Shown one piece after another: positions 3,001-6,000 of a stretch of 64,000 bases of DNA. This stretch comes from Escherichia coli O127:H6 str. E2348/69 (GTDB lineage Bacteria > Pseudomonadota > Gammaproteobacteria > Enterobacterales > Enterobacteriaceae): assembly GCF_000026545.1 (NCBI RefSeq), contig NC_011601.1, one strand, 5' to 3'. A program made the position numbers. Position 1 is the first letter of the stretch. Each line of letters begins with the position of its first letter.

Positions 3001-6000
3001 TTTGAATGCTTGATTGATGTGACTTAGATCTCAAAATTAAGTTGTTAAATTTACCAGTTTATCGCTTGAACACTTAAAATAAATTATAAATCCTTCTGTT
3101 ATTGTTTTTATAATTCAAATTATTGTTGGTTGTATAACTTGATTACATTTTTACTCTAAGTGTTATAAATATTTTATACTGATATTAGTTTTATTATATA
3201 TATTCTTAATGAAAATGAGCATAAAACTAAGACATATAATGCTTGGCAGCTTTATGCTCTTCTGATTGGCTGTATGTTTGATGACAAAAAATTAGCGCAA
3301 GAAGAAAAAATCACCTTGCGCTAATGCTCTGTCTCAGGTCACTAATCACACCTAACTCATTGATTAATTGTGACTCTAAATGTAGTGTTTTGTCGCGTTT
3401 TGCAGTATGTTATTTAATCTATTATATGAATAACATAATGATTTTTAATGTATTTTTGTAATTTACTCTCCTTCTGACATGGAAGTTGTTCGTTCAAAAT
3501 CTTATTAAATATCAAGTTGTTAAATCTGGTAAGTCATTATTGGTCAAAATAAAATCATTATCCGATTTCAATTTTGTCCCACTCCCGCTCGCGACTGTCC
3601 CTATAATGCGCCGCCATTGAATCAGATTTATGTCCAAGAAGACGTTGTGCAAACTTGTAGCCAATCTGGTTCCGATATAGCCTCGCGGACAGACTACGTA
3701 GTTCATGAAATGTCGGTGGGTCTCCATCAAACGAGATCCCGGATGCATTTCGCGCCTTTGTTAAATACCGTGATACTGTGGCTGGAGAAAGTGGTTCGTG
3801 ATAGGTTGATGCGATTATTGTTTCACTGCTGCTGGCCTCCCTGCATTTCTGTAGTGTATCAACCAGTGAGATGTCGAGTGCGTCAATGGTTAGAGCCAGC
3901 GGAATGGCAATTTTGGCTCCTGTTTTACTCTGTCCAATGTGAAGATGACCATCGTTTATGTCTGACCACTTCATTCTGCACAAATCGCCCACTCTCTGCC
4001 CTGTAACGACAGCTAAATCCATTGACAGCCTCAGCCAGATGGGGAGGTGCTCAGCAGCATGGTAAATAGCGACATACTCATTAGCTGTCAGCCTTGAGCG
4101 CCTTACTTCTGACTTTGCTGCACGGGTTGTTGTTACTGGATTCGTTGCCACATGCCCCTCGGCTATTGCCCCTCGAAAAACGTCAACAAGGGTTGACCTG
4201 ATTACTCTTGCGGAAACCGCTTTACCTTCTGCGACGTAGGTGTTTAGCATTGCTGCCACCTCTTTCGTTGATATGTCAGTGAGCGGTTTGTCCGGCAATT
4301 TTCTTCGAATTACCCTGATTTTGCTGGCGTAGTCGAGTAATGTTTTCGGCTTGCTCCCCCTCTAGCTGAGGATTGTTTCATATCGATCAAGCCACGTATG
4401 AAGAGTGATTGAGTCAGTGCCTTTAACCCTGTCCAGCAATGATTCGTGCCCACTTTCGCTGAAAAGCTCAATGTTGGTGTGAATGCTTCTGAAATTGCTA
4501 CTCTTCTGTCTCTTCCCAGCCCGAACTCTTTTTTCGTCCTCGGGTCAGTGTGTAGTAAGACCGCTGCAAATCCTGCGTGCTGACGGGAAGTGGGAAAATA
4601 TTGGCGAAATGAAGTAACCCGATAGCTTCACAAAAACCGGAGTCCGGCTCCGGTTTTTGTTGTCATGTACGGGGGATGTCTGTTAGGAATAATTAGATAG
4701 GTTTATTTTGAAGGTTGAAATGTATGTTATCGCCCTCTTCTATAAATTTGGGATGTTCATGGAATTCTTTAACCAGAAACCTGACTTCGCCTGATAATCG
4801 TGTTTTATCCTCTGTAAGGGATGCTGCTGTTCACTCTGATAGCGGGACGCAAGTAACGGTTGGCAACAGAACATATCGTGTTGTGGTCACTGATAATAAG
4901 TTTTGCGTTACAAGAGAAAGTCATAGTGGTTGTTTTACTAATCTGTTGCACAGGTTGGGATGGCCTAAGGGAGAGATTAGCAGAAAAATTGAGGCTATGC
5001 TGAATACATCGCCAGTGAGCACGACTATAGAAAGAGGCTCTGTTCATTCGAACAGACCTGATTTACCTCCAGTGGATTATGCGCAGCCGGAGTTACCTCC
5101 AGCGGATTATACTCAGTCAGAGTTGCCGAGGGTTAGCAACAATAAATCACCCGTGCCAGGTAATGTTATTGGTAAAGGTGGTAATGCTGTCGTGTATGAA
5201 GATATGGAAGATACAACAAAAGTGTTGAAGATGTTTACTATATCTCAAAGCCATGAAGAGGTGACAAGCGAAGTTCGTTGTTTCAATCAGTATTATGGTT
5301 CCGGGAGTGCAGAGAAAATATATAATGATAATGGAAATGTTATTGGTATTAGAATGAATAAAATAAATGGGGAATCTCTTTTGGATATTCCATCATTACC
5401 AGCACAAGCTGAACAGGCTATTTACGATATGTTTGACAGACTGGAGAAAAAAGGAATTCTTTTTGTTGATACAACAGAGACAAATGTTTTATATGATCGT
5501 ATGAGAAATGAATTTAATCCAATAGATATATCATCTTATAATGTTTCTGATATTTCATGGAGTGAACATCAAGTCATGCAATCTTATCACGGAGGAAAGC
5601 TGGATCTTATTAGTGTAGTATTAAGTAAGATATAATATTTTTATCCAGATATATTAGTTGTAATAATATTTATGGATTTATTTGTTAAGGGGGTTTTGAT
5701 ATGTTACCAACAAGTGGTTCTTCAGCAAATCTTTATTCATGGATGTATGTATCAGGAAGAGGTAACCCTTCGACTCCGGAATCAGTAAGTGAGCTTAATC
5801 ATAATCACTTTCTTTCTCCTGAATTACAAGATAAACTTGATGTTATGGTCTCTATATATTCATGTGCCAGAAATAATAATGAGCTTGAGGAAATTTTTCA
5901 AGAGCTAAGTGCTTTTGTAAGTGGGCTGATGGATAAGAGAAATAGTGTATTTGAGGTGAGAAATGAAAATACTGATGAGGTTGTCGGAGCGCTGAGGGCG

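Follow-up and report, generated by a model that had tools for sequence, protein, structure and literature searches.

At the right end of the lambdoid prophage PP6, which occupies ompW in enteropathogenic Escherichia coli (EPEC) O127:H6 E2348/69, a decayed integrase gene, int', lies between the effector genes nleA and nleH1-2. The region was analysed in a stretch of 64,000 nucleotides (nt) of the chromosome (RefSeq assembly GCF_000026545.1, contig NC_011601.1), called the window below. The relic is probably a fossil integration module, composed of the sib/tI hairpin, a phage attachment site (attP) and int', left by an nleA-carrying lambdoid phage whose HK022-family integrase targeted yfaT. We privilege the hypothesis that the whole E2348/69 effector locus is a head-to-tail stack of phage right arms, delimited by pieces of the tail-fibre gene tfC. 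Arm 0 would hold tfC copy A, its terminator and a phrog_6585 gene; Arm 1 would run from the internal fragment tfC' (copy B) through the nleG remnant nleG', nleA, sib and attP to int'; Arm 2 would start with the truncated tfC'' (copy C) and its terminator, continue with nleH and nleF, and close in a fossil lambda-type attR with a ybhB-side host flank. It is likely that these right arms were stacked by illegitimate recombination, the exact route being less certain. To the right of Arm 2 come more host-derived att fragments and then the true ompW attR. A preliminary description of this DNA had seen in the cargo a mosaic of phage-derived pieces, and the identity of each piece agrees with that.

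The pseudogene int' is real, non-functional, already annotated and an ordinary kind of scar. RefSeq lists 3558-4552 on the minus strand as a tyrosine recombinase pseudogene ("frameshifted; internal stop; incomplete; missing N-terminus"), and the sequence matches phrog_7244 and phrog_1 'integrase'. Over codons 29-355, aligned without gaps by tblastn, the encoded protein is 82% identical to the integrase (Int) of the O111 prophage described below, 81% to HK022 Int and 66% to lambda Int. The sole in-frame TAG, at 4362-4364, falls where HK022 and O111 Int have Glu89 (ILS-stop-RG versus ILSERG). Codons 28-48 (DPRTKKEFGLGRDRRVAISEA) are in a second reading frame, and a net -1 frameshift is situated between codons 48 and 52, at about 4484. 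Codons 1-27 are gone: integrase homology ends at 4546, where homology to tfC copy A (from its position 265) starts. The preliminary description had already reported an integrase frame running nearly end to end with an in-frame TAG and deprived of its first 27 or so codons at a repeated gene end with terminator, all of which is found here. It had also counted at least two frame changes; the second is not needed, since the single -1 shift near 4484 explains all frames. Window 1-8000 is a 100% match to E2348/69 in two independent assemblies, and the same lesions and joint in both assemblies and in distant lineages rule out a sequencing error.

In lambda Int the catalytic residues are R212, K235, H308, R311, H333 and Y342. 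The translation of int' retains the catalytic residues of a lambda/HK022-family tyrosine integrase, the motifs VTGQRVGDL, QSKTGAKIAIP, FHELRSLSA, LLGHKSD and AAHYRD all being readable. The gene offers no intact open reading frame (ORF), however: besides the frameshift and the TAG, it lacks the arm-binding N-terminus (PF09003 in intact relatives). The place occupied by xis in lambda, HK022 and O111 is taken by a tfC fragment and a terminator. We consider it most improbable that the remnant is still active, whether through the residual ORF 3558-4298 (246 amino acids) acting on core sites or through use of its attP by a yfaT-type Int in trans. This ORF keeps the catalytic-domain motifs, with every catalytic-motif residue of lambda Int present in the translation, and the attP arms and core are undamaged compared with a working att pair. 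Yet xis and the arm-binding domain are both missing, the ORF starts at TTG, and the 99.6-100% conservation of the relic among its carriers is explained by recent common descent, the O55:H7 strain DEC5D having gained one further stop (WLD-stop-YETILS-stop). NCBIfam gave sub-threshold matches only for this residual ORF.

The decay of int' is comparatively recent. When it is compared with the O111 and HK022 genes, the ratio of non-synonymous to synonymous divergence (dN/dS) amounts to 0.13, with dS about 0.4, meaning that most of the divergence is older than the inactivation; the allele was still functional while it diverged. A chimeric query, in which the relic was extended by the 5' end of HK022 int plus xis, retrieved no intact or undeleted int' allele from 5,426 complete E. 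coli genomes. Its best match is an intact int-xis pair in O111 strains, located beside a DUF1175 gene (yfaT), and the closest DNA is that of the O111 yfaT prophage at 88.5% identity. Among 5.8 billion protein clusters the closest full-length protein is 87% identical.

Comparison with characterised phages reveals what accompanies int'. Window 3250-4546 is colinear with lambda 27502-28805 and with the sib-attP-int region of HK022. The sib/tI hairpin (fold of -28.6 kcal/mol, z -7.3) is followed by a P arm, a core and a P' arm that are arranged as in characterised attP sites and adjoin the 3' end of int'. The O111 relative tells more about this site. In O111:H- 11128 the yfaT prophage is a 14-kb remnant with the order int-xis-...-lysis-nleG-IS'-nleA-attR-yfaT' (NC_013364.1, 2.903-2.918 Mb). 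The yfaT-type Int of O111 is WP_000533670.1. Window 1484-3485, comprising nleA, its upstream region, sib, the P arm and the core, matches the attR side of this remnant at 97.9% identity, reaching ~100% over 2904-3485, and window 3471-4558, with P' and int, is 85% identical to its attL side. The left half of the relic site is thus the phage half of O111 attR and its right half the phage half of attL, with a shared core and no bacterial flank. The 15-nt core is common to both BLAST segments, and no yfaT sequence is found anywhere in window 1-12000; hence window 3336-3557 is an attP (P-O-P') that has not recombined. Tail-fibre gene, nleG, nleA, sib, P-O-P' and int follow one another as in a phage genome, and int' belongs with nleA on its left rather than with nleH-nleF on its right. 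The preliminary description had noticed neither the intact sib-attP nor this affiliation.

A related unit closes with another core. The last 160 nt of an IMG/VR contig (L108) hold a divergent nleA allele (84%), sib and a P arm, followed by the core CCTTTAATAAGGAA and a small host ORF. This different core indicates that the nleA-sib-P-arm unit travels with HK022-family att sites of several specificities.

The right limit of int' is its joint with tfC''. The two partners share one C, that is 1 nt of microhomology, with patchy similarity beyond it. Codon 28 of int has no homology to the tfC end, so the joint is illegitimate and no homologous exchange took place across a repeat. Here the facts depart from the preliminary description, to which a cassette formed by the gene end and its hairpin looked like the recombination joint. 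Copy B constitutes a second case of foreign DNA followed by a 5'-truncated tfC and by cargo, and its left edge, between the phrog_6585 gene and tfC', is likewise non-homologous. Other truncated tfC scars, whose breakpoints were taken from a BLAST-based comparison of IMG/VR instances, have different left partners and are cut at 221, 236, 261 and 263 in copy-A coordinates; copy B, at 196, and copy C, at 265, bring the junction types to six. No breakpoint falls in the first half of the gene (IMG/VR loci L090, L123/L058/L060, L052 and L069, and copies B and C).

The three tfC pieces of the locus differ in nature. Copies A and C are 93-94% identical over 140 nt, both with the stop codon, the hairpin and a T-run. 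The hairpins fold with about -21 kcal/mol (A: -21.2) and z of -4.4 and -4.8, and are followed by the T-run TTTTTGTTG; a GC-rich stem preceding a T-run makes them predicted intrinsic terminators. A consensus terminator scan reported neither of these hairpins, which were detected by folding, probably since the stem extends into the T-run. Copy B is 89% identical to 196-322, overlaps the piece of tfC present in copy C by only ~58 nt and forms no stable hairpin (fold z +0.17). RefSeq annotates partial tfC genes at 1041-1160, without N- and C-termini, and at 4546-4617. The cassette announced three times in the preliminary description is therefore recognised in copies A and C, while copy B, a different piece of tfC, has neither stop nor hairpin. 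The limits 4548-4661 given there for the third cassette are replaced by 4546-4685, the actual extent of homology.

The same description had assigned to the gene end and terminator a role as a mark of module boundaries, and this view is reinforced by IMG/VR. Among 129 instances of the terminator, the 500 nt downstream fall in at least 23 unrelated groups, and a full tfC precedes it in 106. The cargo varies, but its left border, the tfC end with its terminator, is conserved. Some of these instances have insertions or deletions between the tfC stop codon and the hairpin. In genomes with any match to a 221-nt probe spanning the int'-tfC'' junction, the median number of matching places is 10, mostly cassette copies. 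Such abundance, of about 10 copies per genome of enterohaemorrhagic E. coli (EHEC) or EPEC, together with the diversity of the groups that the cassette borders and the several independent truncated copies with breakpoints clustered at 261-265, could point to homologous exchange between cassette copies as the event that cut the integrase. We regard this as very unlikely: the left partner, int codon 28, is devoid of cassette homology, an exchange of this type would leave a full tfC, and copy B has no stop codon or terminator. In relatives, too, the three-way alignment reveals neither a cassette copy nor 20 nt or more of homology at the 5' end of int.

The right part of the locus has its own history. 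Eight IMG/VR contigs have a full tfC and terminator directly before an nleH homologue, with nleF also present in one of them (85-91% identity). The order full tfC-terminator-nleH(-nleF) is the expected ancestral state of Arm 2. This arm closes with a second att fossil at 6952-7236, which directly abuts, at 6951/6952, an insertion sequence (IS) remnant of the IS256 type. There a sib-like hairpin, a lambda-like P arm, the lambda core GCTTTTTATACTAA, B' and ~75 nt resembling ybhC-ybhB follow one another. The fossil is 80% identical to lambda 27529-27742 through the core, and its B' flank has 83% identity to the ybhC-ybhB spacer that lies right of lambda attB in K-12. Compared with the relic, 6952-7236 is a 73-91% repeat of 3277-3416. 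It is a lambda-type attR with a host flank, its core differing from that of the relic attP. In aberrant excision of the lambda bio type, the expected footprint of imprecise excision is P-O-B' plus adjacent host DNA in the phage arm, and the 6952-7236 segment looks like such a footprint.

These observations led us to the following scheme. A single illegitimate crossover between two lambdoid genomes would have created the int'-tfC'' joint, a yfaT-type nleA phage being broken at int codon 28, past its attP, and an nleH-nleF phage at tfC codon ~67. The partners could have been co-replicating phages, or a circular genome could have met a resident prophage. Lambda addition phages arise by one illegitimate crossover followed by cos-to-cos packaging. 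Packaging from cos to cos or, with one partner resident, deletion of the duplicated body would yield the observed order. The product phage would owe its structural genes and the first set of cargo to one partner, and the second set of cargo, the integration genes and the early genes to the other. The crossover would have added ~4.3 kb of cargo and killed int at once by loss of its arm-binding N-terminus, with one nonsense and one frameshift mutation gained later. The 1-nt microhomology, the colinearity with lambda and HK022, the match of the arm to O111, the contigs with the ancestral Arm 2 and the different closing core all support such illegitimate joining.

Integration of one prophage into another at an attB carried by the latter (attB-in-PP) was rejected as the origin of the int' joint. 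The relic site is P-O-P', not the B-O-P' that an insertion of the type described by Nakamura et al. would leave, and the core of the next att to the right is that of lambda.

Tandem or nested lysogeny is a different route, which we find unlikely. A phage b with a yfaT-type core would have integrated, by its own Int, into the attR of an nleA prophage, generating a hybrid P(a)-O-P'(b) with int(b) beside it, and a deletion from int(b) codon 27 to the tfC of phage b would then have eliminated the body of this phage and spared its nleH-nleF cargo. Exchange by Int would produce the abrupt shift in identity to O111 at the core (~100% to 78-90%), and tandem and prophage-in-prophage arrangements are documented for ompW prophages (PMC8112680). 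On the other hand, the arm right of int' closes with a lambda core and a ybhB flank instead of a yfaT-type P-O-B', yfaT sequence is absent from window 1-12000, and no intermediate was found in the 5,426 genomes. The structure moreover sits in an ompW prophage with a different integrase, which entails extra transfer steps.

Three points weigh against the joining of two phage genomes by illegitimate recombination in the form proposed above. First, when window 2904-3950 is compared with O111 NC_013364.1 2,903,500-2,917,900, identity is ~100% through the last core base and 78-90% from the next base on. This mosaic boundary at the Int crossover site suggests that Int generated one of the two att sites as a hybrid between two phages; a drop placed exactly at the core also fits a hybrid site of the kind found in tandem lysogens. 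Second, three independent tfC joints lie within 5 nt (261, 263, 265), which a purely random illegitimate event does not predict. The clustering weakly sustains a version of the cassette idea in which the site is preferred. Third, the genome and protein cluster searches supplied no undeleted intermediate and no intact int' allele, so we infer the order and mechanism of events.

The relic is widespread in the form seen in E2348/69. The same TAG, frameshift and joint are present in six other carriers: O157:H7 493/89, O55:H7 DEC5D, CEC96047 and three IMG/VR contigs. The junction probe finds a match of at least 99% identity in 420 of the 5,426 complete E. coli genomes, and carriers of the nleA-nleH-nleF locus include O157:H7, O55:H7, O111 and EPEC E2348/69. 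In O157:H7 the order is full tfC-terminator-nleG(frameshifted)-nleA-attP-int'-tfC''-nleH-nleF, compared with which E2348/69 and O55:H7 have an extra segment, 404-1189, and an internal deletion of nleG. The O55:H7 genomes DEC5D, TB182A, USDA5905 and DEC5A match the first 8 kb of the window piecewise, with only 84% covered, and nleA does not appear in the matched parts. The genome inspected was DEC5D, where the gap corresponds to window 1369-2613, most of nleA; sib-attP-int'-tfC''-nleH-nleF is retained, and an EAST1 gene is annotated within its IS remnant.

Table 1. Features of the PP6 right end in window coordinates.
Feature	Position	Strand	Basis or remark
tfC(A), complete 89-codon tail-fibre gene	67-336	+	WP_001023459.1; last conserved late gene before cargo
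Copy A of the tfC end	265-403	+	Last 24 tfC codons, stop, hairpin 351-378, ~25 nt beyond
Cargo gene phrog_6585	557-1040	+	3' end fused out of frame to tfC'(B)
Copy B, tfC'	1041-1167	+	Internal tfC fragment cut at both ends, without stop or terminator
nleG remnant (nleG')	1229-1351	+	5' end only, 40-codon stub
nleA (espI)	1581-2903	minus	RefSeq; effector of same phage arm as int'
sib/tI hairpin	3277-3335	minus	Terminator and processing site downstream of int; near-identical to lambda 27530-27590 and annotated HK022 sib
attP P arm	3336-3470		Colinear with lambda/HK022 P arms; ~100% to phage half of O111 attR at yfaT
att core CTTCTGACATGGAAG, yfaT type	3471-3485		15 nt duplicated, with one mismatch, at O111 attL and attR
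attP P' arm, including GGTCAAAATAAAATCATTAT	3486-3557		Colinear with lambda/HK022 P' arms; homologous to phage half of O111 attL
Integrase pseudogene int', codons 28-356	3558-4546	minus	tblastn, translation, RefSeq pseudogene
Joint of int codon 28 and tfC codon ~67	4546/4547		Three-way comparison of copy A, copy C and intact int genes
Copy C, 5'-truncated tfC'' to 4617	4546-4685	+	Hairpin 4630-4661, ~25 nt beyond; left border of nleH-nleF module
nleH1-2	4724-5635	+	RefSeq; cargo of second phage arm
nleF	5701-6270	+	RefSeq; cargo of second phage arm
Second att fossil	6952-7236		Closes nleH-nleF arm after IS256 remnant
serT-like 3' fragment and downstream flank	7260-7355		~80% match; yccA-hyaA interval in K-12-type genomes
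ykgJ/ecpE-like stretch	7864-8038		71%; attB-in-PP_2 of PMC8112680
yecE-like 21 bp GTCATGCAGTTAAAGTGGCGG	8224-8244		Exact; attB-in-PP_1 of PMC8112680
ompW att core CGGTCTGGTACATGGATATCGATACC	8552-8577		Recurrence of the core

The remaining features of the locus (Table 1) lie on both sides of this region. The product of tfC(A) is named 'phage tail fiber C-terminal domain-containing protein' in RefSeq and matches phrog_576 over its full length (1-89/89, E 2e-58). The next ORF, 557-1099 (180 amino acids), runs into copy B: its residues 1-155 match phrog_6585, a family of unknown function (1-155/156, E 1e-91), and its tail is out-of-frame tfC'. RefSeq annotates fragments only in this area, at 338-457 and 653-802. 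The nleG stub results from an internal deletion of ~590 nt relative to O157:H7, window 1190-1250 and the sequence from 1278 onwards flanking a 588-nt stretch of O157:H7 493/89. That stretch holds a DUF1076/nleG pseudogene, the gene being full length but frameshifted there (L131, 1949-2523). NCBIfam gave no match for tfC, the phrog_6585 ORF or the nleG' remnant.

Further right, the serT-like stretch is probably another fossil att fragment; ARAGORN detects no tRNA at 6900-8700. Genes nleA, nleH1-2, nleF and espO', annotated by RefSeq, all lie between tfC and the ompW att core, as expected of an exchangeable effector locus. Exchangeable effector loci were reportedly the subject of work by Tobe (2006). 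The working integrase and excisionase genes of PP6 adjoin ompW, ~45 kb left of the relic region. Copies of IS200C and ISEc13 are found at window 8807-10930, between an ompW fragment and trpA, and a second ISEc13 interrupts PP6 itself (locus L004, 24325-25698).

PP6 is the PPompW prophage of Nakamura et al. 2021 (PMC8112680), who ascribe the accumulation to Int-mediated integration into attB sites carried in prophages. The effector locus is well described, in a strain that has been studied heavily; RefSeq carries annotations for the pseudogene and for the partial tfC copies, and mosaicism is what one expects of prophage ends. The integrase relic, its attP and the lambda-type attR are all absent from the main text of PMC8112680, in which the words 'ybhB', 'ybhC' and 'yfaT' do not occur; no mention of the serT-like fragment was found there. 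How host att sequences come to enter phage genomes is left unresolved in the discussion of that work, a question on which the att fossils of PP6 bear without settling it.

The interest of the relic is that of a marker, since it still carries an unrecombined attP contiguous with nleA. This contiguity implies that at least one step in building the nleA-nleH-nleF locus was neither Int-mediated integration into a prophage-borne attB nor homologous exchange at gene ends. In that step two phage genomes would have been joined, without homology, in phage-genome order. The relic and the lambda-type attR with its host flank jointly provide a testable explanation for the piling up of effector cargo and host-derived att sites at prophage ends. 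It is doubtful, but worth stating, that the undamaged attP could still be a live substrate for a yfaT-type Int in trans and that the fossil att stack could represent the successive integration sites of the lineage. If so, recombination of this attP with the yfaT attB or with prophage att sites could cause megabase inversions, excisions or docking of DNA into the effector locus. The stack would then have the order attP (yfaT type), attR (lambda type) with ybhB flank, serT fragment, ykgJ/ecpE-like, yecE-like and ompW. Imprecise excision and illegitimate inter-phage joining would form a concrete mechanism for the build-up of attB sites and effectors at prophage ends.

The relic module resembles HK022 (X51962) and lambda (NC_001416, 27.5-28.9 kb) in the order and spacing of sib/tI, P, core, P' and the opposite-strand int, with DNA identities of 83% and 68%, respectively. 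It differs from both in its core (CTTCTGACATGGAAG versus AGGTGAATAAG in HK022 and GCTTTTTTATACTAA in lambda), in an int without codons 1-27 and with a TAG and a frameshift, and in the tail-fibre gene fragment that replaces xis. With the O111 yfaT prophage it shares the att core, the nleA/sib/P arm segment and an integrase of the same family (85% DNA identity). In O111, however, the site is split into attL and attR and int is intact, whereas the relic, embedded in another prophage, has both halves joined as attP and a dead int. Compared with lambda bio-type and addition phages, the PP6 case is read from sequence scars only. Finally, PP6 of E2348/69 is one of the ompW prophages of PMC8112680, with its nleA-nleH-nleF cargo after the tail-fibre genes, but its int'-tfC'' joint is not of the attB-in-PP integration type to which that work attributes accumulation.

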